64,000 nt of DNA from NCBI GenBank assembly GCA_964409365.1, contig CAYPCX010000008.1:265-64264 (forward strand), read 5' to 3'. Numbering within the stretch: the first letter of the stretch is position 1; each line of letters begins with the position of its first letter. Origin of the DNA: an uncultured Planctomycetia bacterium. GTDB taxonomy: Bacteria; Omnitrophota; Gorgyraeia; Tantalellales; Tantalellaceae. Position numbers and translations under genes: made by a program. The notes beneath the pieces are model-generated. The model did not search any database. It saw only the letters and a program-made list of their open reading frames with translations, and was not told where the DNA came from. Below, in pieces: positions 2,302 to 23,455 of the stretch.

Positions 2302-3726
2302 TCACATCAAACTGAACGCGTATTTTTTCCCGAACTCGATATATTTGAGCGACATGCTTTTTGAGGGGGTCTCGCTGTATATCCTCAGCTTGGGTTCCGT
2401 GCCCGAAAGCCTCAAAAGCAGCCAGCTGCCGTCATCGCATATGAACTTGGTGCCGTCGGCGGCGTTGATCCGCACCACTTTCCTGCCCAGGACCTTATCG
2501 AGCGGGTTCTTCTTTATGCCGCTTACCAGCTTTTTCCTCTTCGACCCGTCGAACTTCAGGTCCAGCCTTTCATATACATAGTTGCCGTACTTTTTGTTCA
2601 TGTCCGCGACTATCCTGCTGAGCGGTTTCTTTTCGGCGATCATAAGCTCCATGATAAGAAGCGCCGAAAGGAAACCGTCCCTTTCCGGGATATAGTTCTT
2701 GAAACCTATCCCGCCGGTCTCTTCGCCGCCGATAAGTATGTTCTTTTCGATCATTATCTTGCAGATATACTTGAACCCCACAGGGGTCTCGTACATGGGA
2801 AGCCCCCATTCATCGCATATCTTGTTTATCAGTCCCGTGCCGCATACCGTCTGCACGACGCCGCCTTTCATCTTCCTGTTCTTCAATAGATGCAGAAGAA
2901 GGAGCGTCATCACCTTATGCCCCGAAAGCACGTTCCCATTCTCGTCCACCACCGCTACGCGGTCGGCGTCGCCGTCGGTCGCTATACCCAGATCGTACCT
3001 GCCTTTCTTAACGGCCTGGACAAGCGTCTTGAGGTGCTTCTCGTTCGGCTCGGGGGCCCGCCCCTTGAACCCGGGGTTATCCTCGGTGTTCATGTAATCG
3101 ATCCTGATGGAAGTGTTCTTCAGTATCTCTCCCAGGTAAGTCCCGCCGGTGCCGTTCATGGAATCCACGATCACCTTCAGTTTAGCTTTTTTGAGTTTCC
3201 TCATGTTCGCGTACTTTTTCACCCAATCAAGCTGAACTTTCTCGATGTTCTCGTATACTATCTTTTTCTTCTTCAGCGCTTCATCGAGAGGCATGATCTT
3301 CACCGGGGATTTGTGGAGCCTCTTTTCAATGGCGTCGATTATGTCGCTGCCCGCGGACCCGGCGAAATATCCCTTGTATTTAATACCGTTGTACCTTGGC
3401 GGATTGTGGCTCGCGGTCACCATGACGCCTCCGGTAAGTTTCCTGTTCTTGATATCGACACAAAGGGCCGGGGTAGTGCATGCTTTGTCGGACAGGAAGA
3501 CCTTTATCCCGTTCGCGGCAAGGACGCGGGCTATGAGCTCCGCATATTTAGCCGAAAGGAACCTCGTGTCGTACCCGACCATGAGCTTTCTCTTCCTATA
3601 TATAGGCGTCTTTTTTGACCTCACGAAATCGGCTATCGCCTGCGCGACTATTTCCACGTTCTCGAACGTGAAATCCTCGCTAATGACCGCCCTCCATCCG
3701 TCCGTACCAAACTTGATCTTTGACAT
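2302..3726 (-). CDS. Phosphoglucomutase/phosphomannomutase family (alpha-D-phosphohexomutase)
   Basis: The 474-aa ORF has an FGTDGWRA N-terminus, the TASHNP active-site serine loop and GGEETGG. A strong SD (AAGGAGGAG) precedes the ATG. Confidence 0.85.
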   Translation of the reverse strand: MSKIKFGTDGWRAVISEDFTFENVEIVAQAIADFVRSKKTPIYRKRKLMVGYDTRFLSAKYAELIARVLAANGIKVFLSDKACTTPALCVDIKNRKLTGGVMVTASHNPPRYNGIKYKGYFAGSAGSDIIDAIEKRLHKSPVKIMPLDEALKKKKIVYENIEKVQLDWVKKYANMRKLKKAKLKVIVDSMNGTGGTYLGEILKNTSIRIDYMNTEDNPGFKGRAPEPNEKHLKTLVQAVKKGRYDLGIATDGDADRVAVVDENGNVLSGHKVMTLLLLHLLKNRKMKGGVVQTVCGTGLINKICDEWGLPMYETPVGFKYICKIMIEKNILIGGEETGGIGFKNYIPERDGFLSALLIMELMIAEKKPLSRIVADMNKKYGNYVYERLDLKFDGSKRKKLVSGIKKNPLDKVLGRKVVRINAADGTKFICDDGSWLLLRLSGTEPKLRIYSETPSKSMSLKYIEFGKKYAFSLM

Positions 3727-3767
3727 GCACTCCTCCTTAAAACAGTTAAACGATATGTTAGTGTCAT

Positions 3768-3799
3768 AGTGTCAAAGTTGACTCTGATACTTTGACACT
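3768..3799. repeat. Hairpin/inverted repeat AGTGTCAAAG-(12 nt)-CTTTGACACT within a repeat-rich rpe-pgm spacer that carries five GTGTCA/TGACAC motifs and a GCGAGCG direct repeat
   Basis: Plus strand ttagtgtcatagtgtcaaagttgactctgatactttgacactagcgagcgtaagcgagcgatgacaccttgacactc (3759-3835). Confidence 0.8.
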
Positions 3800-3836
3800 A
3801 GCGAGCGTAAGCGAGCGATGACACCTTGACACTCTC

Positions 3837-4481
3837 TTACGCCATCCTTATCTCCCGTATCGCTTTAGCGTAGTCTTTTTGCCCGAATACCGCGGTACCC
3901 GCGACAAGCACGTCGGCCCCGGCCTTTATAGCTTTGGGGGCCGTCTCCACGTTTATGCCGCCGTCCACTTCTATCAGCCCCTTGAACCGCGGCCTTATAT
4001 CCCTTACCTTCTCCATCATCTCCTCCATGAAAGCCTGGCCCGCAAAGCCGGGTTCGACCGTCATGACCAGCACCATGTCCACCTGTTCCAGTATCCCGTC
4101 AAGCGCGGAAACATCGGTGCCGGGCTTTATGGAAACCCCGGCCTTTTTGCCTTTTTCCTTGATTTTTTTCACGCTGCCCATCGGGTCCTTACATGCCTCG
4201 ACATGAAAAGTGATAAGGTCGCTCCCCGCCTCGGTGAACTCGTCGACGAACTTCACCGGTTCGTCTATCATAAGGTGCACGTCGAAGAACATACGGCTCA
4301 GCGGCCTTACCGCCTTGATGATAAGGGGGCCTATGGTTATATTAGGGACGAATACCCCGTCCATGACGTCCACGTGAAGCCAGTCGGCTCCCGCCCGCTC
4401 AACGGACTTTATCTCTTCCGCCAATTTGCTGAAATCCGCCGATAAGATGCTCGGCGCCACCAAAACCTTCTTTTCACTCAT
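3837..4481 (-). CDS. rpe: Ribulose-phosphate 3-epimerase
   Basis: The 214-aa ORF reads MSEKKVLVAPSILSADFSKL...LHVDVMDGVFVPNITIGP...VDGGIN, a typical Rpe TIM-barrel signature. An AAGGGAG RBS precedes the ATG. Confidence 0.9.
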   Translation of the reverse strand: MSEKKVLVAPSILSADFSKLAEEIKSVERAGADWLHVDVMDGVFVPNITIGPLIIKAVRPLSRMFFDVHLMIDEPVKFVDEFTEAGSDLITFHVEACKDPMGSVKKIKEKGKKAGVSIKPGTDVSALDGILEQVDMVLVMTVEPGFAGQAFMEEMMEKVRDIRPRFKGLIEVDGGINVETAPKAIKAGADVLVAGTAVFGQKDYAKAIREIRMA

Positions 4482-4520
4482 GGCATTCTCCCTTCAAACC
4501 TGCAACCTGAAACCTGCGAC
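4482..4520 (-). repeat. Five tandem heptamers (minus strand: TTGCAGG-TCGCAGG-TTTCAGG-TTGCAGG-TTT...) immediately upstream of the rpe RBS
   Basis: Plus strand aaacctgcaacctgaaacctgcgacctgcaacctgac. Period 7. Confidence 0.8.
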
Positions 4521-4532
4521 CTGCAACCTGAC

Positions 4533-6878: not shown

Positions 6879-6920
6879 TTCCCGTCCTCTGTTTTCTGTT
6901 ATCTGCCTTCTGTCATCTGT
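6879..6920 (-). repeat. Five to six tandem heptamers (minus strand AAAACAG-ATGACAG-AAGGCAG-ATAACAG-AAAACAG) upstream of the M16 peptidase start
   Basis: Plus strand cctctgttttctgttatctgccttctgtcatctgtttt. Period 7. Confidence 0.8.
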
Positions 6921-7332
6921 TTTCCAAGCTATCCAGATATCCCTGCAGTATCAACTGCGCCGCGAGCTTATCTATCACTTTTTTCCGCTTGTTCCTTGTC
7001 ATGTCGGCCGCGAGCATGACGTCCTCGGCTTCTTTGGTGCTAAGGCGTTCGTCCCACAATTCTACCGCAAGACCCGTCTTCTCTTTTAACTTCTCCGCGA
7101 AGGCCCTGCAGTCCTTTGCCCTTTCCCCCATCGTCCCGTCCATGTTAACGGGAAGGCCTACCACTATCTTTTCTATGCCGAGCTCTTTTATGACCTCAGT
7201 GATGCGTCCTATGGCGACGTCATCGCTTCTTCGCAGGACTTTTCCTTTTCCCTGAGCCAGCGTCAGCGTTGTATCGCTGACAGCTAAACCGATATATTTC
7301 GTGCCAACGTCAAGGCCGAGAATTCGTGACAT
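6913..7332 (-). CDS. ruvX: Holliday junction resolvase-like RuvX/YqgF (putative pre-16S rRNA nuclease)
   Basis: The 139-aa ORF starts MSRILGLDVGTKYIGLAVSD, matching the RNase H-fold YqgF N-terminal motif with the catalytic Asp. Confidence 0.85.
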   Translation of the reverse strand: MSRILGLDVGTKYIGLAVSDTTLTLAQGKGKVLRRSDDVAIGRITEVIKELGIEKIVVGLPVNMDGTMGERAKDCRAFAEKLKEKTGLAVELWDERLSTKEAEDVMLAADMTRNKRKKVIDKLAAQLILQGYLDSLENR

Positions 7333-8185: not shown

Positions 8186-9376
8186 CTACATGTTCTCCCT
8201 GATTATGTCTATATCTTTGTCACCACGCCCCGACAGGCAGAATATGATGATATCCTTCTTCCGTGTTTTTTTGGCAAGCCGCGTAAGGTGGTAAGCGGCG
8301 TGCGCCGGTTCCAGCGCCGGGATGATGCCTTCCGTCTCGGAAAGCAGCCTCACGCCTTCGAGCGCTTCCTTGTCGATCACCGATACGTATTCGGCCCTGC
8401 CCATTCGTTTGTAATAGGAGTGTTCCGGGCCGACACCGGGATAATCCAGCCCCGCCGACACCGAATGCGCCAGCTTCACCTGCCCGTCGCTGTCCTCGAG
8501 CAGGAAGCTTTTGCTCCCGTGCAGGACGCCTACCCTTCCCCGCATCAGGGCGGCGGCGTGGTGTCCGGAGCTCATGCCCAGCCCGGCGGCCTCGACGCCG
8601 ATGAACTTGACCTTCCTGTCGCCGTAGAACGGGTGAAAAAGACCTATGGCATTACTGCCCCCGCCGACACAGGCTACCAGGTAGTCGGGAAGCCTCTTCT
8701 CTTTCTTCAACACCTGCCGTTTCGCTTCTCTTCCCAGTACCGCCTGGAAATCCCTTACCATCATCGGGTAAGGATGCGGACCGACAACGGACCCTATTAT
8801 GTAATGGGTATCCCTGACGTTAGTGACCCAATCCCTTATCGCCTCGTTGGTGGCGTCTTTCAGGGTGCATGAACCGCTCTCCACAGGAATGACCCTGGCG
8901 CCCAGGAGCTTCATCCTGAACACGTTGAGGTTCTGCCTCCTGATGTCCTCGGTACCCATGTAAACGTCGCATGAAAGGCCGAAGAGAGCCGCCACCGTGG
9001 CCGTCGCCACGCCGTGCTGGCCGGCGCCGGTCTCGGCTATAAGGCGTTTCTTCCCCATCGCCACGGCGAGGAGCGCCTGGCCGATCGTGTTATTTATCTT
9101 ATGGGCGCCCGTGTGGAGCAGGTCCTCGCGCTTTATGTATATCCTGCCGCCGCCGAGCTTCTTAGTAAGCTTTTCCGCGAAATAAAGCGGCGTGGGCCTG
9201 CCGGCGTATTCCTTAAGATAATAATCGAGCTTCTTCTTGAAAGCGCGGGACGAGCCTATTTTCTTGTAAGCGGCCGTCAGTTCCTTCAACGCGGTCATAA
9301 GGGTCTCGGGGACGTATTCCCCGCCGAATATCCCGAAATAACCTCTTTTATCGGGTAGTTTACGCTTTTTTCGCAT
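8186..9376 (-). CDS. trpB: Tryptophan synthase beta subunit
   Basis: [14 protein letters not shown]-terminus, HTGAHKINN with the PLP lysine, and GGGSNAIG. 396 aa. Confidence 0.95.
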
Positions 9377-10028
9377 TTTCTATGAACTCCTTTATTTTAT
9401 CCTTGTCCTTTTTCCCGGGGGCCTTCTCCACGCCGCTGGAGACATCCACCCCGTACGGGCGGACGGCACTTACCGCCTCGGCCACGTTCTCCGGCGCCAG
9501 ACCTCCCGCTATAAAGAACGGTTTCCTTATCTTCTCTTTCTCTCTCGCCAGGACTTCCCAGTCGAACCTTTCGCCGCTCCCTCCGGCCACCTCCGGATGA
9601 TAAGTATCGAACACGAAAAACTCGGCGTCCATGTAATCATCCGGTATGTATGCCCCGACCGGCAGTATATCGTCCCCGACCTTGAACACCTTTATGATCT
9701 TCACCCGCGGGTGGTCTTTTTCCTCCAGCGTTTTTTTGAGCTCGCTGCAGTAGGCGGGCTTCTCGCCGCCGTGAAGTTGTACAAGGTCCAGGCCGCATTC
9801 CGCGACCGTCCCGGCCACGACGTCTATTTCTTCGTCCTTGAATAGCCCTACAGTGCTTACGCTTTCTCTGTGACGACCGAGACCATCTATAACACCCTTG
9901 GCCGTCCCGCTGTCTACCGCGCGGGGAGTCCCTCCGATAAAGATGAAACCCAGAAGATCCGCTCCGCGTTCGCAGGCCTCGACCGCGTCCTCAAGATTAG
10001 TGATCCCGCAGATCTTCACCTTTGTCAT
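9360..10028 (-). CDS. trpF: Phosphoribosylanthranilate isomerase
   Basis: [10 protein letters not shown]... PRAI TIM-barrel signature. The start was placed at the second ATG (10028). The 7 upstream codons (to 10049) coincide with an ATGACAA heptamer repeat tract. The 3' end overlaps trpB by 17 nt. Confidence 0.85.
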
Positions 10029-10056
10029 TTGTGCTTTGTCATTTGTCATTAAAATT
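10029..10056 (-). repeat. Tandem heptamers ATGACAA x3-4 upstream of / overlapping the trpF start
   Basis: Plus strand tttgtcatttgtgctttgtcatttgtcatt. Confidence 0.8.
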
Positions 10057-10836
10057 TTATTCCCTCATCAATTCCCTGACCTTGTCCCCGATATTCTCCG
10101 CCCTCATGAACGTCTCGCCTATCAGGACGGCGTTCACCCCCAGGCTCTTCAGGAACATCACCTGTTCGTAGCTTTCTATGCCGCTCTCCGAGACTATCAC
10201 CTTCGTCTCGGGTATCAGCCGGATAAGCCGCTGCGTCGTGGATATATCCACGTCAAAATTCGTAAGGTCCCTGTTGTTGATCCCTATGATGGACGCGGGC
10301 GAGGCAAGCGCCTTCTCTATATCCTCCTCGTTGTTCACCTCTACCATAACGTCGATACCGAGTTCCTTGGCGATACCATGGTAACGACCAAGCTCATCCT
10401 GCGTGAGGATGTGCGCTATCAGGAGTATCGCGTCGGCCCCGTGCGCCCCCGCCTCGTATATCTGGTACTCATCTATTATGAAATCCTTCCTCAGAACGGG
10501 CAGCGTCACCCTTTCCTTCACTATGTCCAGGTACTCGAGTTTGCCGTCGAAGAACCGCTCGTCGGTAAGCACGCTTATGGCGCCGGCGCCCGCCGCCTGG
10601 TAAGCCAGGGCTATCCTGGCCGGGTCGAACTCCCCGGGACGTATCACTCCCCTGGAAGGAGACCTTCTTTTTATCTCCGCTATGAGATTTATATGGCCTT
10701 TGCGGGAAATGTTCCTTTTGAACGCGCTCCTGATGGCCTGGGCTTCCGCCTTCTGTTTGAGCTCGTTCAAAGGGGCTTCCCTGCGGGCCTGTTCGACCTC
10801 GCGCTTTTTTTCCTCCACTATTTTTCCCAATATCAC
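10057..10836 (-). CDS. trpC: Indole-3-glycerol phosphate synthase
   Basis: MILGKIVEEKKREVEQ...INLIAEIKRRSPSRG...LIGETFMRAENIGDKVREL. 259 aa. ATGA overlap with the trpD stop. Confidence 0.9.
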   Translation of the reverse strand: MILGKIVEEKKREVEQARREAPLNELKQKAEAQAIRSAFKRNISRKGHINLIAEIKRRSPSRGVIRPGEFDPARIALAYQAAGAGAISVLTDERFFDGKLEYLDIVKERVTLPVLRKDFIIDEYQIYEAGAHGADAILLIAHILTQDELGRYHGIAKELGIDVMVEVNNEEDIEKALASPASIIGINNRDLTNFDVDISTTQRLIRLIPETKVIVSESGIESYEQVMFLKSLGVNAVLIGETFMRAENIGDKVRELMRE

Positions 10837-11867
10837 TTGTTTTTTCCCTTCCCTTTCGTGATCCTGATCAACTGGTCGAGCTTTCGCATGGCGCTGCCGG
10901 AATCGATCGACCGCGCCGCCAGCCTCACGCCTTCTTTAAAGCCGCGCGCCTTACCCGCGGCAACAAGGGCGACAGCCGAATTCATCAGCACGACATCCCG
11001 TTTCGCCCCTTTCCTGCCGGAAAGGACCCCGCGGACCATAGCGGCGTTCCCCCTGACCGTGCCTCCCTTTATGGCCTTCAGTGAGGCCTTTTTCACACCG
11101 AACGTCGCGGGAGAGACGTTGTAGGTAGTGACCCTTCCTCCCTTGAGCTCGCTGATCCTGGTCTTGCCGACCACCGAGACCTCATCAAGCGGGCCGTCGC
11201 CGTGCACCACGAACGCGCGTCTGGATCCCAGTCTTTTGAGGACCCTGGCCAGTATTTCCGTCAGTCCCGGGTCATATACGCCCAGCACCTGGTACTTAGC
11301 CGACGCCGGGTTGCACAAGGGGCCCAGGATATTGAATATCGTCCTTATGCCTATCTCCCTGCGCGGACCGATGGCGTAACGCATCGCCCCGTGATAAAGC
11401 GGCGCGAAAAGGAACCCTATCCCTACTTTGTTGACGCATCTCTCGGTCGCTTTCACGGGCGTATCAAGTTTCACGCCGAGCTCCTCAAGCACGTCGGCGC
11501 TCCCGCAATGGCTGGAGACGCCCCTGTTGCCGTGCTTTGCCACCTTGACCCCGCAGCCGGCCACGACAAAAGCCGCGGTCGTGGAAACGTTGAAAACCTT
11601 CGTCCCGGTACCGCCCGTCCCGCAGGTATCAAGAACGGAGGCCGACCTGCCGGATACCTTTATCTTCGCGGCCTTTTCACGCATGACCTTCGCGGCACCC
11701 GTTATCTCGTCCACCGTCTCCCCCTTCATACGCAGGGCGGTTATGAAAGCCCCTATCTGAGAAGGGGCGGCTTTTCCGCCCATTATCTCGTTAAAAACGG
11801 AACGGGTCTCGTTCTCGGTAAGGTCTTCAAACCCGACTACTTTACTGATCGCTTTCTTTATTTTCAT
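10833..11867 (-). CDS. trpD: Anthranilate phosphoribosyltransferase
   Basis: DTCGTGGTGTKVFNVSTTAAFVVAGCGVKVAKHGNR, the glycine-rich PRPP-binding signature. 344 aa. Confidence 0.9.
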   Translation of the reverse strand: MKIKKAISKVVGFEDLTENETRSVFNEIMGGKAAPSQIGAFITALRMKGETVDEITGAAKVMREKAAKIKVSGRSASVLDTCGTGGTGTKVFNVSTTAAFVVAGCGVKVAKHGNRGVSSHCGSADVLEELGVKLDTPVKATERCVNKVGIGFLFAPLYHGAMRYAIGPRREIGIRTIFNILGPLCNPASAKYQVLGVYDPGLTEILARVLKRLGSRRAFVVHGDGPLDEVSVVGKTRISELKGGRVTTYNVSPATFGVKKASLKAIKGGTVRGNAAMVRGVLSGRKGAKRDVVLMNSAVALVAAGKARGFKEGVRLAARSIDSGSAMRKLDQLIRITKGKGKNK

Positions 11868-11876
11868 GTTCCCCCG

Positions 11877-12446
11877 TCAATTTATCCCAATAAAGTTCCT
11901 GAGAAGGTTCATTCCTTCTTCCGTCAGTATGGACTCGGGATGGAACTGCACGCCCCATACGGGCCTGTTCACATGCTTCACTCCCATTATCTCTTCCTCG
12001 TCTTCCGTCCATGCCACCATCTTCAGCGGCTCCTTCAGCGATCCCGGCTCGATGATAAGCGAATGGTACCTCGTGGCCGTGAACGGTGACGGGACTCCCT
12101 TGAAAATACCTTCGCCGGTATGCGCCACCGGGCTCACCTTGCCGTGCATTATCCTTGACCCCCTTACGACCTTTGCCCCGTAAACTTCCGCTATACACTG
12201 GTGGCCCAGGCAAACACCGAGTATAGGCACCCTGTCGGCGAAGACCCGTATCACTTCTTTCGATATGCCGGCATCACCGGGCCTGCCGGGACCCGGCGAT
12301 ATGACTATTCTTTCAGGCGAAAGCTTCTCTATCTCTTTTAGGGTGATCTTGTCGTTGCGGTAGACCTCTAACCTTTCGCCAAGCTCTCCCAGATACTGGA
12401 CGAGGTTATACGTGAACGAATCGTAGTTGTCGATCACAAGTATCAT
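11877..12446 (-). CDS. trpG: Anthranilate synthase component II (glutamine amidotransferase)
   Basis: MILVIDNYDSFTYNLVQYLGELG...GVCLGHQCI...HPES, a class-I GATase triad. The start is at the internal ATG 12446, which overlaps the trpE stop (ATGA). The 54-codon upstream extension of the raw ORF lies inside trpE and was rejected. Confidence 0.85.
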   Translation of the reverse strand: MILVIDNYDSFTYNLVQYLGELGERLEVYRNDKITLKEIEKLSPERIVISPGPGRPGDAGISKEVIRVFADRVPILGVCLGHQCIAEVYGAKVVRGSRIMHGKVSPVAHTGEGIFKGVPSPFTATRYHSLIIEPGSLKEPLKMVAWTEDEEEIMGVKHVNRPVWGVQFHPESILTEEGMNLLRNFIGIN

Positions 12447-13921
12447 CCGAGACCTTCCTCGGCGAACTCTATCGCTTTTATCATGGCCATCGCCTTGTTC
12501 ATGGTCTCCTGGTACTCCCTTACGGGGTCGGAATCGAGAACTATTCCGGCGCCCGCCTGGATGTACGCCGTGTCGCCGCACATGACTATAGTCCTTATCG
12601 TTATGCACAGGTCGATGTTCCTGGAAAAACTGAAATACCCGACGCTGCCGGCGTAAGGGCCCCGTCTTATGTTCTCCAGCTCGTCGATTATTTCCATCGC
12701 CCTGACCTTCGGGGCGCCCGTCACGGTACCGGCCGGGAACGTCGCCCTTACCAGGTCGAAAACGTCCTTATCTTCTCTCAGTTTGCCCACGACATCGCTC
12801 ACTATGTGCATGACGTGCGAATACCTCTCGATCCTCATGACCTCCCGCGGCTTTACGCTTGAATATTCGCACACCCTGCCGATGTCGTTCCGGCCCAGGT
12901 CGAGGAGCATTATATGCTCGGCCCTTTCCTTCGGGTCGGCCAGAAGCTCTTTCTCGAGCCGCAGGTCTTCTTCCTCGTCCTCGCCGCGCGGGCGCGTGCC
13001 CGCTATAGGCCTTACCTCGACAAGCCCGTCCTCGCACCTGACAAGTATCTCGGGGGACGACCCGATCAGCCGGTACTCGCCGAGCTTCAGGTAGAACATG
13101 TAAGGCGACGGGTTGATGGACCTGAGAGCCCTGTATATCGAGAAAGCGTCCGCTTTCGTCCGCCTTTTCAGCCTCTGCGAAAGGACGGTCTGGATAATAT
13201 CGCCCGCCCGTATATATTCTTTCGCGGCCTCTACTATCTTGCCGAACCCTTTCTCCGTGAAATTGGATTCGATCTCCGTTGACTTCGCGTTAGGCGGCGT
13301 TTCCCCGCCGCCCGCTTCCTTCCTTTGCAGCTTATCGATTATATTATCTATTTTCGCGCAGGCCTTGTCGTAAGCCTCTCGCGGGTCGTCTTTCTCCACG
13401 AGGGAATTCGAGACGACTTTTATCTTATGGTCGACATGGTCGAAAATAAGGATAGTGTCCGTGAACATGAACTGCATGTCGGGTATATCGAAATCGTCGC
13501 GGTTCTCATCCGGTATATCCTCGATGAACCGGACCATGTCATAGCCCATGTAACCGACCAGCCCCCCGCAGAACCTCGGCAGCCCTTTTACGCTGACGTA
13601 ACGGAACCTGTCCATGAACTTCTTGATCTCGCCTATGGGGTCTTCCCCGGCCTTGTAGGAATCCACTTTATCGCCGCGCCTCACGCTGATATTGTTCCCC
13701 TTGCTCTCGAACACGACGGCCGGTTTGCTGCCGAGGAAAGAATAACGGGCCATGTTCTCGCCCCCCTCGACGGACTCGAGCAGATAGCTGAAGTTCCCCT
13801 CGTCTATCTTCATGAAGGCCGAAAGCGGCGTCTCGAAGTCCGCGAGAAGCTCCCTGTAGACCGGGATCACGTTACCCTTCTTCGCAAGCTCTATGAATTT
13901 TTCCTTATCCGGATAATACAT
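12443..13921 (-). CDS. trpE: Anthranilate synthase component I
   Basis: The 492-aa ORF has the chorismate-binding enzyme C-terminal core (GTRPRG...AGTVTGAPKVRAMEII...RGPYAGSVGYF...GAGIV). Confidence 0.9.
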   Translation of the reverse strand: MYYPDKEKFIELAKKGNVIPVYRELLADFETPLSAFMKIDEGNFSYLLESVEGGENMARYSFLGSKPAVVFESKGNNISVRRGDKVDSYKAGEDPIGEIKKFMDRFRYVSVKGLPRFCGGLVGYMGYDMVRFIEDIPDENRDDFDIPDMQFMFTDTILIFDHVDHKIKVVSNSLVEKDDPREAYDKACAKIDNIIDKLQRKEAGGGETPPNAKSTEIESNFTEKGFGKIVEAAKEYIRAGDIIQTVLSQRLKRRTKADAFSIYRALRSINPSPYMFYLKLGEYRLIGSSPEILVRCEDGLVEVRPIAGTRPRGEDEEEDLRLEKELLADPKERAEHIMLLDLGRNDIGRVCEYSSVKPREVMRIERYSHVMHIVSDVVGKLREDKDVFDLVRATFPAGTVTGAPKVRAMEIIDELENIRRGPYAGSVGYFSFSRNIDLCITIRTIVMCGDTAYIQAGAGIVLDSDPVREYQETMNKAMAMIKAIEFAEEGLG

Positions 13922-13969
13922 CCCTCTTCCCTTTTTCCTTGTTACTTTTTCCTTTTTCCTTGTTACTTT
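13922..13969 (-). repeat. 21-bp tandem duplication (three heptamer phases: AAAAAGT-AACAAGG-AAAAAGG, x2) upstream of trpE
   Basis: Plus strand cctttttccttgttactttttcctttttccttgttacttttt. Confidence 0.8.
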
Positions 13970-14362
13970 TTACTTGTCACTTTTTTTATATACGTCTTTC
14001 GGGTCGAATACCCGTTCCTCTTCGATAACGAACTCTCCGCTTTTGCCCATCTTCCTGAAATAACAGCTGAAGTATCCCTCGTGACAGGCCGCGCGCTCCT
14101 GCTTGACCCTGAAAAGAACGGAATTGTCGGCGCAGTCTATGAACACTTCCTTCACTGTCTGAACGCATCCGGAAGTCTCCCCCTTCAGCATGACGCGCCC
14201 CTTCGAGCGGCGGAAGACGTATATCTTCCCTTCGGCAAGCGTCTTCTCCAGAGCCTCCCTGTCCATGTAACATAAGGTAAGCACGCGAGAAGAATCCGCG
14301 TCCTGTATGACAGCGGGCACCAATCCCTTTTCGTCAAAATTGAGCGTATCCACGAACGACAT
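13970..14362 (-). CDS. hisI: Phosphoribosyl-AMP cyclohydrolase
   Basis: The 130-aa ORF has GLVPAVIQD...[14 protein letters not shown]...[10 protein letters not shown]. It is monofunctional HisI with no fused HisE part. Confidence 0.85.
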
Positions 14363-14365
14363 ATC

Positions 14366-15124
14366 TTACTCCCTTATTGTTACACCCTTCTTCTTCAAGT
14401 ATCTTTTTACTTCCGCGATCGTGAACTCTTTGAAATGGAAAACAGACGCGGCCAGGGCCGCATCCGCCTTACCGTCGGTGAGCGCCTCTAAAAAATGCTC
14501 CAGCGTCCCGCACCCGCCCGAAGCTATAACGGGTATACGCACCGCCTCGCTTACCGCCCGCGTGAGTTCCACGTCGTATCCGTCTTTCGTGCCGTCGCGG
14601 TCCATGCTCGTAAGCAGGATCTCGCCGGCGCCCAGGCTCTCGGCCTTCCGGGCCCACTCCAGGGCGTCTATCCCGGTCGCGTCGCGGCCGCCCCTGACGT
14701 AGACCTCCCAGCTGCCGCCGGCCCTTCTTTTGGCGTCTATCGCGACCACTATGCACTGCGAACCGAACCTCGTGCTCGCTTCGCTTATGAGATCCGGCCT
14801 TTCCACGGCGGAGGTGTTGATAGAGACCTTGTCACAGCCCGCATTCAGGAGCTGGCGTATATCCTCGTTGGAGGATATGCCTCCTCCCACCGTGAACGGC
14901 ATGAACACCTGCTCCGCCACCCTGGCCACGACGTCCACCATCGTCTTCCTTTTCTCGTGGCTCGCCGTGATGTCCAGGAACACCAGCTCGTCGGCGCCTT
15001 CGTCGTTGTACACCTTGGCGTTCTCGACGGGGTCGCCGGCGTCGCGGAGGTTCACGAAATTGACCCCCTTGACGACACGGCCGTCCTTGACGTCAAGACA
15101 CGGTATTATCCGCTTTGCCAGCAT
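14366..15124 (-). CDS. hisF: Imidazole glycerol phosphate synthase cyclase subunit
   Basis: [20 protein letters not shown]...[11 protein letters not shown]...[12 protein letters not shown]. 252 aa. Confidence 0.95.
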
Positions 15125-15833
15125 CTATCGCCTCCTTGAGATCGATCGTGCCCTCGTAAAGCGCGCGGCCTATTATGACGCCCGTAAGGCCCTTGTCCTC
15201 CAGCCTTTTCAGCTGGCGGATGTGGTCCAGCGTCTTTATCCCGCCCGCGGCGACAAGCTTGATCTTGACCTCGTCCAGGATCCTCTCTATATTCTCCACG
15301 GCTGGCCCCGTAAGCATGCCGTCCCTCTCGATATCCGTGTAGATTATCTCCTTGGCGCCGAACTTCACGAACCTGCTCAGTATATGAAAAAAATCATGGT
15401 GCGCGGCCTCTTCCCAGCCCTGCACGCGGGGGATGAAATCCTTGGCGTCAACGCTGAGTATGACCCTCTCCCGGAAATTCTGGACGCAGTCCCTCGCGAA
15501 ATCTATTTCCTGGAAAGCCTTGGACCCCACTATGACCCTCCACGCGCCGTGATCAAGGGCGTCCTTTATGTCTATCTCCCTGCGGTATCCTCCGCCCACT
15601 TCGACCGGTATGTTGACCGCTTTTGTTATTTCCCTTAGAACGGAGACGTTCACGGGCTTGCCCTCTTTCGCCCCGTCAAGGTCCACCACATGCAGTATTT
15701 CCGCGCCGGCGCTCTCCCATCGCCTGGCGGCATCGACCGGTTCTATGTCATACTTAAGTTCCCGGTCGAACCTTCCCTGTTCGAGCCTGACGGTCTTTCC
15801 GTTGATTATATCCACAGCCGGTATCACTTTCAT
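15093..15833 (-). CDS. hisA: ProFAR isomerase
   Basis: [20 protein letters not shown]...[16 protein letters not shown]...[11 protein letters not shown]. The 3' end overlaps hisF by 32 nt. Confidence 0.9.
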
Positions 15834-15864
15834 ATCTTTACACTACTCCTTTTACCGTTACGGT

Positions 15865-16473
15865 TCAAAGTTCCGTGAAATTCCGCAAAAGCTTTATGCC
15901 GTTCTCCTGCGACCTCTCCGGGTGGAACTGTACGGCATAGATGTCGTCTTTCCAGAGCGCCGACGTGTAAGGGACGCCGTATTCGGTCCGGCCCGCCGTG
16001 CACTCGTCCTCCTCCGATATACAGTAGTACGAGTGAACGAAATAAAAATAACTTTCGTCCCCGATGCCCCTGAAGATCGGACAGTCATCCCTCATAAGCT
16101 TGACCGTATTCCACCCTATCTGAGGCACCTTGAACTTCGGGGTGGCGGGAAAAAGCTTCACTTCTCCGTCGATCAGGCCGAAACATTCGCATCCGCCGCT
16201 CTCCGCGCTCCGCTCGAAAAGGAGCTGAAGACCCAGACAGATGCCCAGAAAAGGTTTTCCCTTGTCTATGCCCTCCATGATCGGCTCAATGAGCCCCCTT
16301 TTTTCGAGGCCTTCCATCGCGTCCCTGGACGAACCGACCCCGGGAAGGACTAGTTTTTCCGCCTTCTCCAGGGACGCCGTGTCCTCGCAAACCTCGACGT
16401 CCTGCCCCAGATAACGGAAAGCGTTGTACACGCTGCGCAGGTTCCCCGAACCGTAATCGATAATTCCGATCAT
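15865..16473 (-). CDS. hisH: Imidazole glycerol phosphate synthase glutamine amidotransferase subunit
   Basis: MIGIIDYGSGNLRSV...GICLGLQLL...HSYY...VQFHPERS. 202 aa. Confidence 0.9.
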   Translation of the reverse strand: MIGIIDYGSGNLRSVYNAFRYLGQDVEVCEDTASLEKAEKLVLPGVGSSRDAMEGLEKRGLIEPIMEGIDKGKPFLGICLGLQLLFERSAESGGCECFGLIDGEVKLFPATPKFKVPQIGWNTVKLMRDDCPIFRGIGDESYFYFVHSYYCISEEDECTAGRTEYGVPYTSALWKDDIYAVQFHPERSQENGIKLLRNFTEL

Positions 16474-16506
16474 AATAGTTATGAGTTATGAGTTTTTAGT
16501 TTTTAG
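16474..16506 (+). repeat. Tandem heptamer tract AGTTATG-AGTTATG-AGTTTTT-AGTTTTT on the 3' side of the four-helix-bundle gene
   Basis: Direct reading of the intergenic sequence aatagttatgagttatgagtttttagtttttag. It is inverted relative to the AGTTNTT tract at 16870-16913. Confidence 0.8.
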
Positions 16507-16857
16507 CTACTTTAGTGATCGCTTTAAACCGCTTAACATTTTCGATATTTCAACCAACGTATCTTTAAAGTCATTAAATTTAGACTCACATATATATTGT
16601 TGATTAAAAGAAACCTCAAGAATCGCTGCACACTCAAAAACAGAACCTCTTGCTATGTCGAGAAAACGTTTAAATTCTTTACTTGCTCTTGACGATCCCT
16701 CAGCGATGTTTAGCAAAATAGACACAGCGGCTCTTCTCAACTGCTGCGTCAGGCCAAACAATTCCTCTTTTGGAAAATCCCTGGTTAGCAAATAAATATT
16801 ATCTACTAAATCGCTTGTTTTCCTATATATGTCTAATTTTTCAAAAGTGAACTTCAT
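16507..16857 (-). CDS. Four-helix-bundle protein of the 23S rRNA intervening-sequence protein family (TIGR02436-like, Avd-like fold), inserted between hisH and hisB
   Basis: MKFTFEKLDIYRKTSDLVDNIYLLTRDFPKEELFGLTQQLRRAAVSILLNIAEGSSR...FLDIARGSVFECAAILEV, the characteristic family motifs. It is markedly AT-rich (about 37% GC versus about 57% for neighbours). The start was chosen at ATG 16857. The ORF track begins 4 codons upstream at a TTG. Confidence 0.75.
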   Translation of the reverse strand: MKFTFEKLDIYRKTSDLVDNIYLLTRDFPKEELFGLTQQLRRAAVSILLNIAEGSSRASKEFKRFLDIARGSVFECAAILEVSFNQQYICESKFNDFKDTLVEISKMLSGLKRSLK

Positions 16858-16869
16858 TTCCCAACCCAA

Positions 16870-16913
16870 AACTAACAGCTAACAACCAAGAACTAATAAC
16901 TAATAACTAACAA
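16870..16913 (-). repeat. Tandem heptamer tract (minus-strand reading AGTTGTT-AGTTATT-AGTTATT-AGTTCTT-GGTTGTT-AGCTGTT) on the 5' side of the four-helix-bundle gene
   Basis: Plus strand actaacagctaacaaccaagaactaataactaataactaacaact. Together with 16474-16506 it forms imperfect terminal inverted repeats around the AT-rich gene. Confidence 0.8.
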
Positions 16914-17552
16914 CTACAATATCCCCTTGCTCGAAGGCACTTCACCCGTCCTGCGCGGGTCGAGACGCGTAGCCCTGTCCAAAGCCACGCCAAGCGCCTT
17001 GAAGACCGCCTCCAGAAAGTGGTGCATGTCCCCTTCGCCCGCTATTTCGATGTGAAGGTTCATGCGTATGTTCTTGGCGAAACTCTCAAGAAGGTCCTTC
17101 GCCAGGTCTATCGAATACCCTTCCTTGGCTTCCACCGATATCGGATAACCGGTCGAGGTCTTCTCGCTGAAACTGAAAGCGTCCCTGTTAGAGACATCCA
17201 CAAGGACCTTCGCGCTGGCCATGTCCATCGGCACCTCGGCCGAGGCCATACGGGTTATGCCTTTGCAATCGCCCAGCGCTTTCTTGAACGCCTCTCCCAG
17301 GGCTATGCCGATATCCTCGTTCAGGTGATGCCTGTCCACGTGTGTATCGCCTTCCGCCTTTATCTTGATATCAAAATACCCGTGATAGGTAAAAAGCGTC
17401 AGCATGTGGTCGAGGAAACCGATCGAGGTCGAAATGTCACTCTGGCCCGTACCATCGATGTTCAGCAAAGGTATCTCGATCCGGGTCTCCTTGGACTTCC
17501 TTTCATAACTCGTTTTTCTTGCCGCTGTTTGCTTTTTCTCAAAAATAGCCAT
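16914..17552 (-). CDS. hisB: Imidazoleglycerol-phosphate dehydratase
   Basis: RKSKETRIEIPLLNIDGTGQSDISTSIGFLDHMLTLFTYHG...DTHVDRHHLNEDIGIALG, the IGPD metal-binding histidine motifs. A GGAGGCGG RBS precedes the ATG. Confidence 0.9.
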   Translation of the reverse strand: MAIFEKKQTAARKTSYERKSKETRIEIPLLNIDGTGQSDISTSIGFLDHMLTLFTYHGYFDIKIKAEGDTHVDRHHLNEDIGIALGEAFKKALGDCKGITRMASAEVPMDMASAKVLVDVSNRDAFSFSEKTSTGYPISVEAKEGYSIDLAKDLLESFAKNIRMNLHIEIAGEGDMHHFLEAVFKALGVALDRATRLDPRRTGEVPSSKGIL

Positions 17553-17588
17553 ACCGCCTCCATGTCAACCTGTTACCTGTTACCTGAA
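17553..17588 (-). repeat. Heptamer repeats (minus strand GTTCAGG-TAACAGG-TAACAGG) upstream of the hisB RBS
   Basis: Plus strand cctgttacctgttacctgaac. Confidence 0.75.
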
Positions 17589-18812
17589 CTATTCACATCT
17601 TACTTTAACGGAATCCCAGTGGTGTTCCATCTTCTCCAGTCCCGCCATCTCTTTCACCCACTCGGCCGAATTGCAAAGCGCCTTGCGGGAATAAGAAATG
17701 ACATGCGAGCTTTTGAAAAAATCCCTCAAATTCAGACCCGATGAATAACGCGCCGTCCCTCCTGTCGGCAGCACGTGGCTCGGCCCCGCGATATAATCGC
17801 CTATCGCCACCGGCGTGTACTGGCCGAGGAATATCGCCCCGGCATTCGTTATGTGCTTCAGCACCCTGTTCGGCGACTTCACCATGAGCTGCAGGTGTTC
17901 CGGGGCTATCATGTTCGATACCCTCGCCGCCTCCTCGAGGTTCTTCACCTTGATGATATAACCCTTGATGTCCGGGTCCCTGTAAAGGGCGTCGAACACT
18001 TTTTTAGAGGGCGTTACCAGCACCGACAGGCCCTTGTGGTGTTCCGCCTGCGCCATCAGGTCCCTCTTGAGGTAATCAAGGTTCGCATGATGGTTGGCGA
18101 TAACAAGCACCTCGCTCGGCCCCGCCAGCATGTCTATGTCGCAGTACCCGAAGACCTGCCGTTTCGCCTCGGTAACATACTCGTTGCCGGGACCGACTAT
18201 CTTGTCCACCTTCGGTATGGTCTTCGTCCCGAACGCGAGGGCGGCTACCGCCTGGGCGCCGCCTACTTTGTATATCTCGTCGACCTTCAGGAGGTTAGCC
18301 ACGACCAGTATATGCGGATCTATACTCTGGTACTTGTTGGGCGGAGAGACCATGACGATCTTTTTCACCCCCGCGATCCTGGCGGGCAGGACGGTCATGT
18401 ACACGCTGGAAGCCAGCGGGGCCGTCCCGCTGGGGACGTACACTCCCACTTTCTCTATCGGCTCGAACTTCTCCCCGAGCAATATGCCCGACTCATGCCT
18501 GATAGACCAGGACTTCGGTATCTGGTTCTTGTAGAACTTGTTGATGTTCCTGATTATCTCCTTCAGCGTGTTGACCATCTGGGGGCTCATGTCCTGGTAC
18601 GCCCCGCTTATCTCGGCTTCGGTCACCCGCAGGTCCTTCCTCTTCATGTTCACCCTGTCGAACCTGCCGGTATACCGTATAACGGCGTTGTCCCCTTCTT
18701 CCCGGACCTTCCCGATTATCGTGGCTACTTTCTTCTGCAGGCGTGCCCCGCCCTGTCCCCTGCGGTCCACCATGTTCTCGAACACCCTGCTGCCGACTAT
18801 CAAACGTTTCAT
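17589..18812 (-). CDS. hisD: Histidinol dehydrogenase
   Basis: The 407-aa ORF has the HDH family core (VGVYVPSGTAPLASSV...AGPSEVLVIA...AQAEHHKG...IAPEHLQL). The start is 1 nt after the alaS stop. Confidence 0.9.
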   Translation of the reverse strand: MKRLIVGSRVFENMVDRRGQGGARLQKKVATIIGKVREEGDNAVIRYTGRFDRVNMKRKDLRVTEAEISGAYQDMSPQMVNTLKEIIRNINKFYKNQIPKSWSIRHESGILLGEKFEPIEKVGVYVPSGTAPLASSVYMTVLPARIAGVKKIVMVSPPNKYQSIDPHILVVANLLKVDEIYKVGGAQAVAALAFGTKTIPKVDKIVGPGNEYVTEAKRQVFGYCDIDMLAGPSEVLVIANHHANLDYLKRDLMAQAEHHKGLSVLVTPSKKVFDALYRDPDIKGYIIKVKNLEEAARVSNMIAPEHLQLMVKSPNRVLKHITNAGAIFLGQYTPVAIGDYIAGPSHVLPTGGTARYSSGLNLRDFFKSSHVISYSRKALCNSAEWVKEMAGLEKMEHHWDSVKVRCE

Positions 18813-21540: not shown

Positions 21541-22581
21541 TCAGCCCGCGGCAGTGAGGACCTTTCTGACGTCTTTTTCTATCCTGTCCAGGAGTTTCGG
21601 GTTCTCTTTAAGGTATATCCGGGCGTTCTCCTTCCCCTGGCCTATCTTCTCATCGCCGTACGAAAGCCACGTTCCCGTCTTCGTGATCACGCCCACTTCT
21701 TCCCCGATATCTATGACGCTCGATGAACGGGATATGCCTTCGTCGAACATGATATCGAACTCCGCCTGCTTGAACGGCGGGGCGAGCTTGTTCTTCACGA
21801 CCTTGCCCCTGACGCGGCTTCCCATTACCTGGTCGCCTTTCTTGAGAGAAGCTATCCTCCTCAGGTCTATCCTGACCGACGCGTAGAACTTAAGCGCCCT
21901 GCCGCCGGTGGTCGTCTCGGGGTTCCCGAACATCACGCCTATCTTCATCCTGATCTGGTTGATAAAGATGACGCAAGTTCTTGACTTGCTTATGGCCCCG
22001 GTCAGTTTCCTGAGAGCCTGGCTCATGAGCCGGGCCTGGAGGCCGACGTGCGAATCGCCCATATCTCCCTCTATCTCTTTCCTCGGCGTAAGGGCGGCCA
22101 CCGAGTCGATGACTATCACGTCCACGGCGTTACTGCGTACCAGCGTCTCCGCGATCTCCAGCGCCTGTTCGCCGTTGTCCGGCTGCGAGACCAGGAGCTC
22201 ATCGAGATTTACGCCTATCTTTTTCGCGTAGGTCGGGTCGAACGCGTGCTCGGCGTCGATAAAAGCCGCTACCCCTCCCTTTTTCTGCGCGTTGGCCAGG
22301 ACGTTCAGCGTGAGCGTGGTCTTCCCGCTGGATTCAGGGCCGAATATCTCGACCACCCTGCCCCTGGGGACGCCGCCGACGCCGAGCGCCATGTCCAGGG
22401 CGATAGACCCGGTGGATATGCCTTCCACCTGGGCGTGGTACCCCTTTCCCATCTTCATTATCGCGCCGTCGCCGAAGTCTTTCTGTATCTTGCTGAGCGC
22501 CAGTTCGAGCGATTTGTCTTTCCCGGCGCCTTTTGACACCGCCTTTTCGTTCTCAGATCTTGTTTTCGCTTTCTTTGCCAT
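21541..22581 (-). CDS. recA: Recombinase RecA
   Basis: MAKKAKT...[28 protein letters not shown] (Walker A)...[12 protein letters not shown]. The start was set at ATG 22581, preceded by GGAGGT 6 nt upstream. The raw ORF extends 14 codons further. Confidence 0.95.
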
Positions 22582-22650
22582 GGTGACCTCCGGATATTTA
22601 TTTAGGATGGATACAATTAGCACCTAAAACATTTCTATATAAACAGCACT

Positions 22651-22678
22651 ATTATAATAGCAGTTCGGTTTTTGTAAA
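22651..22678 (-). promoter_or_regulatory. Sigma70-like promoter for recA: -35 TTTACA, 16-bp spacer, -10 TATAAT (minus strand). The -10 is embedded in the palindrome CTATTATAATAG.
   Basis: Minus strand ...cctTTACAaaaaccgaactgctatTATAATagtgc... about 70 nt upstream of the recA ATG. The -10 is a 6/6 match and the -35 a 5/6 match. Confidence 0.5.
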
Positions 22679-22740
22679 GGCATTTCTTACGAGTATAGAA
22701 AATCAAGTGTCAAGCAACAAGTATCAGGTAACCGGTTTCC

Positions 22741-22830
22741 AGACAACTCTGGTCACTGGTTACTGGTTCCTCAATACTCCACCCTCGATACTCCTCCCTT
22801 GATACTCTACACTCAATACTCGATACTCTA
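22741..22830 (-). repeat. Repeat cluster upstream of the recA promoter: heptamers CTGGTCA-CTGGTTA-CTGGTTC then five copies of [CT][AG]ATACTC at 7/14-bp spacing
   Basis: Plus strand ggtcactggttactggttcctcaatactccaccctcgatactcctcccttgatactctacactcaatactcgatactc. Confidence 0.75.
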
Positions 22831-22882
22831 CTATTAGACACATTTTGGGGAAGGATTCTTTCAGGTTTTTTTCCGGGACGGC

Positions 22883-23455
22883 CTATCCGGAAAGCTCTGC
22901 CGTGGATAGATACGTGTAGACAGCGCCTTTCGGTGAAAGGTCGGACCTGAAAAGCACTATCCTGGATATATGGCTGACCGCGGGCCTGACGTCCACGGAC
23001 CCGGCCAGTTCCCGGAGCTTGCCCTTGTTCTTTGAAGTCCTTATCCTGCCCAGCGTGAGATGGGCGCTGAAGGGGCGGTCTTCTTTTTCGAACCCTTCTT
23101 CGGCCATAGCTTCTTCCACCTGCGCAGCAAGGTCCCCGACCGTATCGGCGCCTTTACCCGCACCTACCCATAAGACCTTGGCATAGCTCCACTTGGGGAA
23201 TACCCCGATACCGTCGAGCGCCATGTCGAAAGGCGGCACCGCGAACGCTATTTCCTTCAACCTTTCGGTTATGCGGGGGATCTGCTCTTCGGTAATATTA
23301 CCGAGGAACTTGAGGGTAAGATGTATCGACCCGGGCTTGACCCATTTGACGTCGGCGCCCGCTTCTTTCAGTATCGCTTCTATACGCTCAAGCTCTTCCA
23401 GGACTTCATCCGAAAGCTCAAGCGCTATAAAACTCCGTATCTTCTGGTCAGACAT
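22883..23455 (-). CDS. thpR: RNA 2',3'-cyclic phosphodiesterase (2'-5' RNA ligase LigT/ThpR, 2H phosphoesterase)
   Basis: Two H-x-T-x motifs (HLTLKFLG and HLTLGRI) with the expected spacing. The start was chosen at ATG 23455 (MSDQKIRSFIALEL). The ORF track starts 5 codons upstream at a TTG. Confidence 0.8.
   Translation of the reverse strand: MSDQKIRSFIALELSDEVLEELERIEAILKEAGADVKWVKPGSIHLTLKFLGNITEEQIPRITERLKEIAFAVPPFDMALDGIGVFPKWSYAKVLWVGAGKGADTVGDLAAQVEEAMAEEGFEKEDRPFSAHLTLGRIRTSKNKGKLRELAGSVDVRPAVSHISRIVLFRSDLSPKGAVYTYLSTAELSG

Follow-up and report, generated by a model that had tools for sequence, protein, structure and literature searches.

The DNA analysed here is a stretch of 64,000 nucleotides from an uncultured bacterium deposited as Planctomycetia and placed by GTDB in the Omnitrophota (assembly GCA_964409365.1, contig CAYPCX010000008.1, positions 265 to 64,264 of the forward strand; hereafter the window). 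Our data show that the spacer between its hisB and hisH genes is filled by a small cassette, a gene of the PF05635 family known from intervening sequences (IVS) of 23S rRNA, bracketed by two inverted arrays of heptamers. The locus probably belongs to a widespread class of IVS-type cassettes, in which a PF05635 gene lies between arms made of inverted heptamer arrays; it was inserted at the hisB|hisH junction, and would be co-transcribed with the operon and cut by RNase III. As judged from the genomes compared, the build and the covariation of its arms recur across phyla, and gene-less derivatives occur. Inverted heptamer arms, insertion at operon junctions and derivatives resembling MITEs (miniature transposable elements with inverted repeats) are general features of the large PF05635 family that the present analysis adds.

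An AT-rich cassette with inverted heptamer arms

The genes of the region are read from the minus strand in the order alaS, hisD (18812-17589), hisB, the small open reading frame (ORF), hisH, hisA, hisF, hisI, trpE, trpG and onward. The cassette and its two host genes comprise the following features, all on the minus strand:

16474..16916, minus: whole cassette, 443 bp, consisting of 5' arm, short leader, ORF and 3' arm; occupies the complete hisB-hisH spacer
16914..17552, minus: hisB (imidazoleglycerol-phosphate dehydratase, IGPD), upstream host gene; PF00475 E = 1.8e-48, NCBIfam HisB models
16870..16916, minus: 5' arm of the transcript, TAGTTGT TAGTTAT TAGTTAT TAGTTCT TGGTTGT TAGCTGT TAGTT, about 6.5 units; sense strand G+T-rich
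16858..16869, minus: leader (TTGGGTTGGGAA) between 5' arm and ATG, with a weak Shine-Dalgarno-like GGG..GGGAA
16507..16857, minus: ORF, 116 aa from ATG, including the TAG stop at 16509-16507; PF05635/TIGR02436 'S23p' four-helix-bundle family
16474..16506, minus: 3' arm of the transcript, CTAAAAA CTAAAAA CTCATAA CTCATAA CTATT, 33 nt; sense strand A+C-rich, period 7
15865..16473, minus: hisH (IGP synthase glutaminase subunit), downstream host gene; TIGR01855 E = 1e-65

A first-pass annotation of this DNA had reported a 117-aa AT-rich gene about 20 GC points below hisH and hisB. The gene and its composition stand (GC 0.35 versus 0.53-0.55 in hisB and hisH, 18-20 points lower), and the ORF region is the lowest-GC island of the window; the length, however, is 116 aa when the start is chosen by family alignment (M-x-F-x-F-E-x-L), while an alternative upstream TTG would give 120 aa. 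The assignment to the 23S rRNA IVS-protein family was borne out by a full-length match to PF05635 (E = 6.8e-35, 119.9 bits versus a cutoff of 33.8, model positions 1-106) and by TIGR02436 (E = 3.1e-32, 111 bits versus a cutoff of 24). The ORF also matches PDB entries 2GSC, the S23p-family pentamer of X. campestris (E = 1.2e-18), and 2RLD (E = 0.0015), both deposited with five chains, and its product is most likely a nucleic-acid-binding homopentamer like these solved relatives. PADLOC defence models gave no family for the ORF at E up to 0.1, an Rfam scan of the locus returned no known RNA family and no rRNA, and neither a sigma-70-like promoter nor an intrinsic terminator was detected inside the cassette. 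The leaders of relatives are, at the same place, of the AGAAAGAG type. No Shine-Dalgarno sequence precedes hisH (ACTCATAACTATT-ATG, 16471-16486); hisB, trpE and other genes of the cluster have GGAGG-like sites.

Both arms are seen as period-7 arrays by Tandem Repeats Finder, the 5' arm with 6.7 copies and 82% matches. They reach into the host genes' boundaries on either side: the hisB stop codon is the first TAG (16916-16914) of the 5' arm and so lies within its first heptamer unit, and the 3' arm runs directly into the hisH ATG (16473-16471). As the first-pass annotation had it, the tracts are inverted; 33-nt arms are 85% complementary over a separation of 368 nt, with an arm-arm duplex energy of -28.3 kcal/mol. 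Its further suggestion that they could pair and enclose the ORF agrees with the predicted structure, since the enclosing stem appears in both the minimum free energy (MFE) and the centroid fold of the transcript strand. The predicted pairing probability of the arms is about 0.8, with 27 of the 33 nt of the 3' arm above 0.5, and is the same whether 0.47, 0.8 or 1.2 kb is folded. An internal loop at the foot of this predicted stem contains the hisH AUG.

How unusual such a pair is can be judged within the window. Among tandem periods only 7 is enriched (5 regions versus 0-1 for periods 4-12), and the arms of the cassette form the best duplex among all pairs of heptamer arrays, a value reached by 2 of 2000 mononucleotide shuffles. 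Their ungapped inverted-match score of 18 lies above all 385 matched controls (maximum 11). It should be noted, however, that random tandem arrays of matching composition attain the duplex energy of the arms in 23% of cases, and the decisive evidence is therefore comparative and does not come from a statistic of the single locus.

Empty sites in related his operons

The gene is absent between hisB and hisH in 15 orthologous his operons of Omnitrophota, whose HisB proteins are 54-79% identical to that of the window. Eleven of these are metagenomic hisD-hisB-hisH-hisA operons (HisB 54-75% identical) with hisB-hisH spacers of 0-211 nt. Four further contigs were reached through the closest RecA proteins, a search in which all named best matches were Candidatus Omnitrophota, at up to 85% identity, and which puts the host in that phylum; they share the cinA-ligT-recA-alaS-his-trp synteny of the window and have hisB-hisH gaps of 5, 5, 47 and 3 nt. 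Where relatives have an empty junction, its sequence is, for example, '...CTT TAA gaaga ATG...' or 'TAA aag ATG'.

These sites show that the cassette is an insertion placed exactly at the hisB|hisH junction with both reading frames untouched. The same comparison shows a native spacer of 3-50 nt, hisH Shine-Dalgarno sequence included, to have been displaced by the cassette, because the syntenic relatives have short gaps such as 'CTT TAA gaaga ATG'. The first-pass annotation had anticipated an insertion that leaves the operon intact, and had named two outcomes that would speak against it, the same gene without repeats in relatives and flanks that do not pair; the empty sites and the predicted fold contradict both.

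Two of the 15 operons, from metagenomic relatives with 75% HisB identity (L084 and L086, 3600-3812), have neither a short gap nor a gene; a hairpin of 211 nt that encloses no gene occupies precisely the hisB-hisH junction. It consists of inverted 7/14-nt arrays, (GTTAGCTCGTTGAT)n ... TTTTTTTTAAAA loop ... (ATCAACAAGCTAAC)n, with a unit that resembles the GTTAGCT/GTTAGTT of the window, and suggests that the site was already occupied at an earlier time or is a hot spot.

The same build across phyla

A pattern scan built from an alignment of close homologues, with one genome per GTDB species, gave 80 loci in Planctomycetota, Omnitrophota, Candidate Phyla Radiation (CPR)/Patescibacteria, Nitrospirota, Bacteroidota, Clostridia, Gamma- and Deltaproteobacteria, Actinomycetota and others. 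The flank comparisons cover 77 related loci. The family as a whole is very large (18,431 clusters at 50% identity, E up to 0.001). In 97% of the loci the PF05635 gene is AT-richer than the DNA 0.2-2.5 kb away, by 8 points on average. A strong period-7 signal (score of at least 16 of 21) is present in the 80-nt flanks upstream of the gene in 49% of loci and downstream in 34%, versus 1.7% of matched control positions, and of the 146 heptamer arrays counted there, 72 are no more than 120 nt from the gene. Copies per arm have a median of about 4.1. Co-orientation with both neighbours was found in 47 of 68 relatives, with median gaps of 64 and 45 nt.

The flanks of relatives are also inverted-complementary, 52% of loci scoring above the controls' 99th percentile (Mann-Whitney p = 2e-25); direct similarity between the two flanks is not enriched in these loci. 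For this comparison RNAduplex energy was dropped as a family metric and replaced by the ungapped inverted-match score, because the GC-rich control flanks pair almost equally well (median -29 versus -33 kcal/mol). The heptamer itself varies with the lineage, being AGTTCAT/AGTTCGT in Omnitrophota and Planctomycetota and GTTGAGA, AGTTCGG, AGGAGTT, AATATGG or ACCTCAG elsewhere. Even so, where strong arrays flank the gene on either side (24 loci), the units of the two arms are reverse complements of each other, one mismatch allowed, in 19, a result matched in 0 of 2000 permutations. Units that are specific to a lineage and still match across the arms amount to covariation for pairing. The polarity is constant as well: on the sense strand it is always the G+T-rich arm that lies upstream of the ORF.

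None of the 80 relatives lies within an rRNA gene by an Rfam check, and a search of IMG/VR phages with the patterns used gave no relatives. More distant homologues with a like heptamer-armed build are carried by cyanobacterial plasmids. In Nostoc edaphicum plasmid pNe_5 (L093, 1489-1857) arms of (GGGAGTA)x8 and (TCCCTAC)x5 enclose a gene between nrdB and nrdA, and plasmid pNPUN01 of N. punctiforme PCC 73102 (locus at 1617-1982) has arms of (CAGGAGT)n and (GACTCCT)n. A plasmid of Picosynechococcus sp. PCC 7003 (L096, 1489-1845) has the heptamer-armed gene inside a type III-B CRISPR module, with cas10/cmr2 on one side and cmr3 on the other. The L093 and L096 genes are annotated 'four helix bundle protein'.

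Two loci of unusual form were seen in the course of the scan. In L022 and L026 (about 2900-4430) the upstream arrays are exceptionally long, with 13 or more heptamer units, and their PF05635-like match continues into a 1.4-kb ORF of host-like GC (0.52-0.53), which could be a fusion or a degraded copy.

We also asked whether heptamer arrays are selected as insulators that supply stop codons in all three frames. The idea was rejected, as 0.33/0.21 of arrays supply them versus 0.41/0.39 of shuffled-unit arrays; a three-frame stop supply holds for the 5' arm of the window and is not a family feature.

Insertion sites, gene-less derivatives and selection

The neighbours of the cassettes are functionally mixed and have no common theme, including an Mnh antiporter, fumarase with YchF, gyrA, V-ATPase subunit D and the CCA-adding enzyme with YqeY, and further NadA, FtsJ, glycosyltransferases and a histidine kinase. 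About 10 loci lie directly downstream of, or between, tRNA genes:

L063, L066, L069, L070, L074, L077, L078, L080 and L081: cassette 150-250 nt downstream of a co-oriented tRNA gene

The L078 cassette is flanked by two tRNA genes, which is to say inserted in a tRNA operon.

Gene-less hairpins in the loci of relatives are built from the heptamer unit of the intact cassette resident there. The hairpin of L010 keeps the 5' arm, the first ~30 nt of the ORF (~10 codons), its last ~25 nt (~9 codons) and the 3' arm; the residual N-terminus reads MGFSFENLDV, against MGFNFENLDV in the intact copy. Since both ends of the ORF and both arms are retained, the hairpin is an internal deletion and in this sense MITE-like. 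Two of the loci (L023 and L053) come from one Omnitrophota metagenome-assembled genome (MAG), and the window itself covers 64 kb of one genome. The ORF family is under strong purifying selection, with a median ratio of nonsynonymous to synonymous substitution rates (dN/dS) of 0.12, from which we conclude that the protein is functional.

Heptamer arrays without a PF05635 gene

Arrays of the same period occur elsewhere in the window, where they fill short spacers between co-directional genes just 5' of Shine-Dalgarno sequences:

4497-4530, 6888-6924, 10020-10050, 13930-13985, 17568-17586 and 22749-22828: solo period-7 arrays, no PF05635 gene

Their coding-strand units are unrelated (GCAGGTT, AAACAGA, TGACAAA, AAAAAGG/TAACAAG, CAGGTAA, TAACCAG, GAGTATC), and within the window no solo array has an inverted partner within 400 nt. 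The closest named relative (L099; GCA_034723315.1, JAYEOV010000042.1) has arrays at the operon junctions of the window with quite different units:

hisD-hisB spacer of L099: GTGATAA-type hairpin
hisB-hisH spacer of L099: GTGATAA solo array
hisI-trpE spacer of L099: CGTGGAT x7

No arrays are present at these junctions in L097 and L101. It follows that arrays appear and change fast at fixed junctions and, with solo arrays present both in this genome and in its relatives, that heptamer arrays are a broader phenomenon than the cassettes, of which the solo arrays may be footprints; they may equally be products of independent slippage or sites of protein binding.

A separate region upstream of recA (22451-22925) is the second-lowest-GC island of the window (minimum 0.38); two heptamer/14-mer arrays lie side by side in it, together with a weak hairpin (AACCAGTAACCAGTGACCAG...CTGGAAACCGGTTACCTG).

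What the arms may do

The explanation we favour is that the cassette is transcribed within the his operon mRNA and that its G+U-rich 5' arm would pair with the A+C-rich 3' arm to form an imperfect duplex of about 40 bp around the ORF. By analogy with 23S rRNA IVS elements, RNase III would cut this duplex, free a monocistronic cassette RNA and part the hisD-hisB transcript from that of hisH and the genes downstream. Processing of this kind, if it takes place, would explain how insertions are tolerated in rRNA, in tRNA operons and in essential mRNA operons. With no Shine-Dalgarno sequence in front of hisH and with the AUG placed at the stem base, HisH synthesis may require processing or unfolding.

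A number of observations weigh against this explanation, in whole or in part. Cleavage of the cassette by RNase III is argued purely from analogy. Mismatches in the arms show no excess of G:U over A:C (68 versus 62, p = 0.66), so that selection for pairing could act on the DNA and not on the sense transcript. In about half of the relatives no inverted bracket is clearly significant at the strict threshold, three (L039, L052, L060) have direct and not inverted arrays, about 30% are not co-oriented with both neighbours, and the Nostoc edaphicum gene is antisense to nrdB and nrdA. Solo arrays stand at other junctions of this genome with no PF05635 gene beside them. As to insertion and movement, no target-site duplication could be recognised when filled and empty hisB|hisH sites were compared, the window holds a single copy of the cassette, and no recombinase- or transposase-like gene was seen in its gene map or near the cassette. 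Copies at orthologous sites persist to synonymous distances (dS) above 1, and movement must therefore be rare.

Several of these points would be met if the arms acted as DNA, that is as terminal inverted repeats (TIRs), as a hairpin or cruciform for a transposase or recombinase acting in trans, or as replication structures, with the RNA stem a by-product. We regard this as a serious rival, or a complement, though on the unlikely side. The symmetry of G:U and A:C mismatches, the MITE-like internally deleted derivatives and the share of copies not co-oriented with both neighbours are all in its favour, and the published idea that IVSs are remnants of transposition (PMC4990558) fits it. Against it are the want of a transposase or recombinase in or near the cassette and of a visible target-site duplication, the consistent polarity of the G+T-rich arm, and the fact that RNase III cleavage in the stem is experimental for the homologous Coxiella element (PMC4990558). 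The two ways of reading the arms, as DNA and as RNA, are not mutually exclusive.

The strong purifying selection and the long persistence of copies at orthologous sites might also be expected of a regulator domesticated by the host, kept for its benefit, whose protein binds the arrays on mRNA or DNA (perhaps one subunit per unit) and tunes the flanking his genes. About four units per arm in a family of pentameric proteins, the lost Shine-Dalgarno sequence of hisH with its AUG at the base of the stem, and MacGregor's proposal of translational regulation by TAACTGA arrays point the same way. Such a role is nonetheless improbable, given that the neighbours of relatives have no functional theme, that the closest relatives do without the cassette and that gene-less derivatives persist.

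It is very improbable that the arrangement is a coincidence, with a genome that fills its spacers with heptamer microsatellites, of the kind known as short tandemly repeated repetitive (STRR) or TAACTGA sequences, and a horizontally acquired small gene that happens to lie between two of them. Solo period-7 arrays in the window, arrays of other units at the same junctions in related Omnitrophota operons, and the intergenic heptamer arrays of cyanobacteria, Beggiatoaceae and Xanthomonas all make it conceivable. Yet the only convincingly inverted pair of arrays in the window is the one around the PF05635 gene, both the association and the inverted complementarity are met again in phylum after phylum, with units that covary, and the gene-less hairpin of L010 is a deleted cassette.

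The last alternative, an orphan Avd of a diversity-generating retroelement (DGR), draws on the homologous four-helix-bundle fold of a pentameric, nucleic-acid-binding family, on the PHROG 'Avd protein of DGR' (E = 1.5e-12) and on weak matches to PF22296 bAvd and NF033474, but is effectively refuted for the window locus by Avd-specific scores below the curated cutoffs (29.6 versus 40 bits for PF22296, 31.1 versus 80 bits for NF033474) and by the lack of any reverse-transcriptase Pfam hit within 20 kb or candidate in the window gene map (template and variable repeats were not searched for), and the 80 relatives lie in housekeeping operons and not in DGR loci.

The class of IVS-type cassettes that we favour could be extended further, to PF05635 cassettes as pan-bacterial autonomous mini-elements which unite ORF-bearing rRNA IVSs, STRR/TAACTGA arrays and 'orphan' Avd-like genes. 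The protein would recognise or maintain the arms, with about one subunit per 7-nt unit and 4-5 units per arm, RNA released by RNase III or a DNA hairpin would be the intermediate of spread, and many of the solo or gene-less arrays found in operon spacers of bacteria would be footprints or non-autonomous derivatives. So broad a scheme seems to us doubtful.

Relation to known elements

The closest known counterpart is the IVS in the 23S rRNA of Coxiella burnetii, a 'selfish element' of 428-444 nt with an S23p (PF05635) ORF, enclosed by a 28-bp terminal stem that is cleaved by RNase III (PMC4990558). Between its 5' cleavage site and the ATG lie 2-3 tandem GACAGAT heptamers whose number varies between strains, and the ORF is reported to be decaying and untranslated (PMC4990558). 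ORF-bearing IVSs are known from Coxiella burnetii (helix 45), Leptospira, Brucella and Haemophilus, and excision by RNase III is established for those of Coxiella, Salmonella, Leptospira and similar elements (PMC4990558). The likeness to rRNA IVS flanks that was noticed in the first reading of the window goes beyond the flanks: the Coxiella IVS has the same parts in the same order at nearly the same size (443 nt here), with one S23p ORF, terminal inverted repeats, heptamers 5' of the ATG and no mobility gene (PMC4990558). The cassette has the complementary termini that enclose an IVS, and 6.7 copies of a TAGTTNT-type unit upstream of its ATG. It differs from rRNA IVSs in lying between hisB and hisH; the position in 23S helix 25 or 45 that defines an IVS is not that of the cassette, whose surroundings are those of an mRNA operon, not of an rRNA helix. 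Its arms, unlike those of the Coxiella element, are wholly heptamer arrays, and its ORF belongs to a family under purifying selection. Excision is experimental for Coxiella and is transferred by analogy to the cassette. We consider the cassette best filed as an IVS-type PF05635 cassette in a protein-coding operon.

One further hairpin uses the Coxiella unit: at L059 (3625-3715), in an Actinomycetota MAG, GACAGAG/GACAGAT/GACAGAA units and their complements form a gene-less hairpin, the heptamer being the one that the Coxiella 23S IVS is reported to have ahead of its S23p ORF.

The arrays have a strict 7-nt period, few copies, short spacers, a frequent position directly 5' of starts and fast turnover, as do the STRR of cyanobacteria, the TAACTGA intergenic repeats of Beggiatoaceae, cyanobacteria and Bacteroidetes (PMC4679880) and the GGGAATC repeats of Xanthomonas, with 70-75 convergent inverted pairs (PMC4692102). 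They differ from these in being the two arms of a gene cassette, a link that the Nostoc plasmid copies show as well. PF05635 or S23p is not mentioned in either report: PMC4679880 has 0 occurrences of '23S', 'S23' and 'four helix', and PMC4692102 has 0 of '23S' and 'four-helix'. In the literature searched, which leaves most subscription journals outside, we found no prior description of heptamer-armed PF05635 cassettes outside rRNA, the Coxiella IVS heptamers being all that was met with.

With MITEs, repetitive extragenic palindromic (REP) sequences and bacterial interspersed mosaic elements (BIMEs) the cassettes share terminal inverted repeats, intergenic insertion and gene-less hairpins with the arms of the gene-bearing form. 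Unlike them, they have tandem heptamers for arms in place of unique TIRs, and neither a target-site duplication nor a recognisable cognate transposase was seen. Integron cassettes likewise have one promoterless ORF, an imperfect inverted repeat and expression by read-through; here, in contrast, the ORF has repeats to its left and right, integrase and attI are lacking, and copies are scattered singly in housekeeping operons and not arrayed.

Other features of the window

The host genes of the cassette are part of one unbroken co-directional cluster, hisDBHAFI + trpEGDCFBA (8186-18812, minus strand), directly 3' of alaS, and its order is kept in related Omnitrophota contigs. Adjoining cinA-ligT-recA, a single ORF of 13,300 aa runs off the window (24039-63941, minus strand); on the source contig this giant gene is annotated with a product of 16,071 aa, for which no Pfam hit is recorded.

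Significance

The function and origin of rRNA IVSs and of S23p ORFs have been in question since the early 1990s, and so has the meaning of intergenic heptamer repeats. Our results show the IVS build to be not confined to rRNA but that of a general, cross-phylum cassette found also in essential mRNA operons and in tRNA operons. Carriers that can be cultured, such as those of the Nostoc punctiforme and Picosynechococcus plasmids, make cleavage of the arms, binding by the protein and movement accessible to experiment. For annotation, the cassette explains why AT-rich genes named 'four helix bundle protein' are met time and again squeezed into operons, as in nrdB/nrdA or cmr2/cmr3, and carries the warning that such insertions may split operon transcripts.

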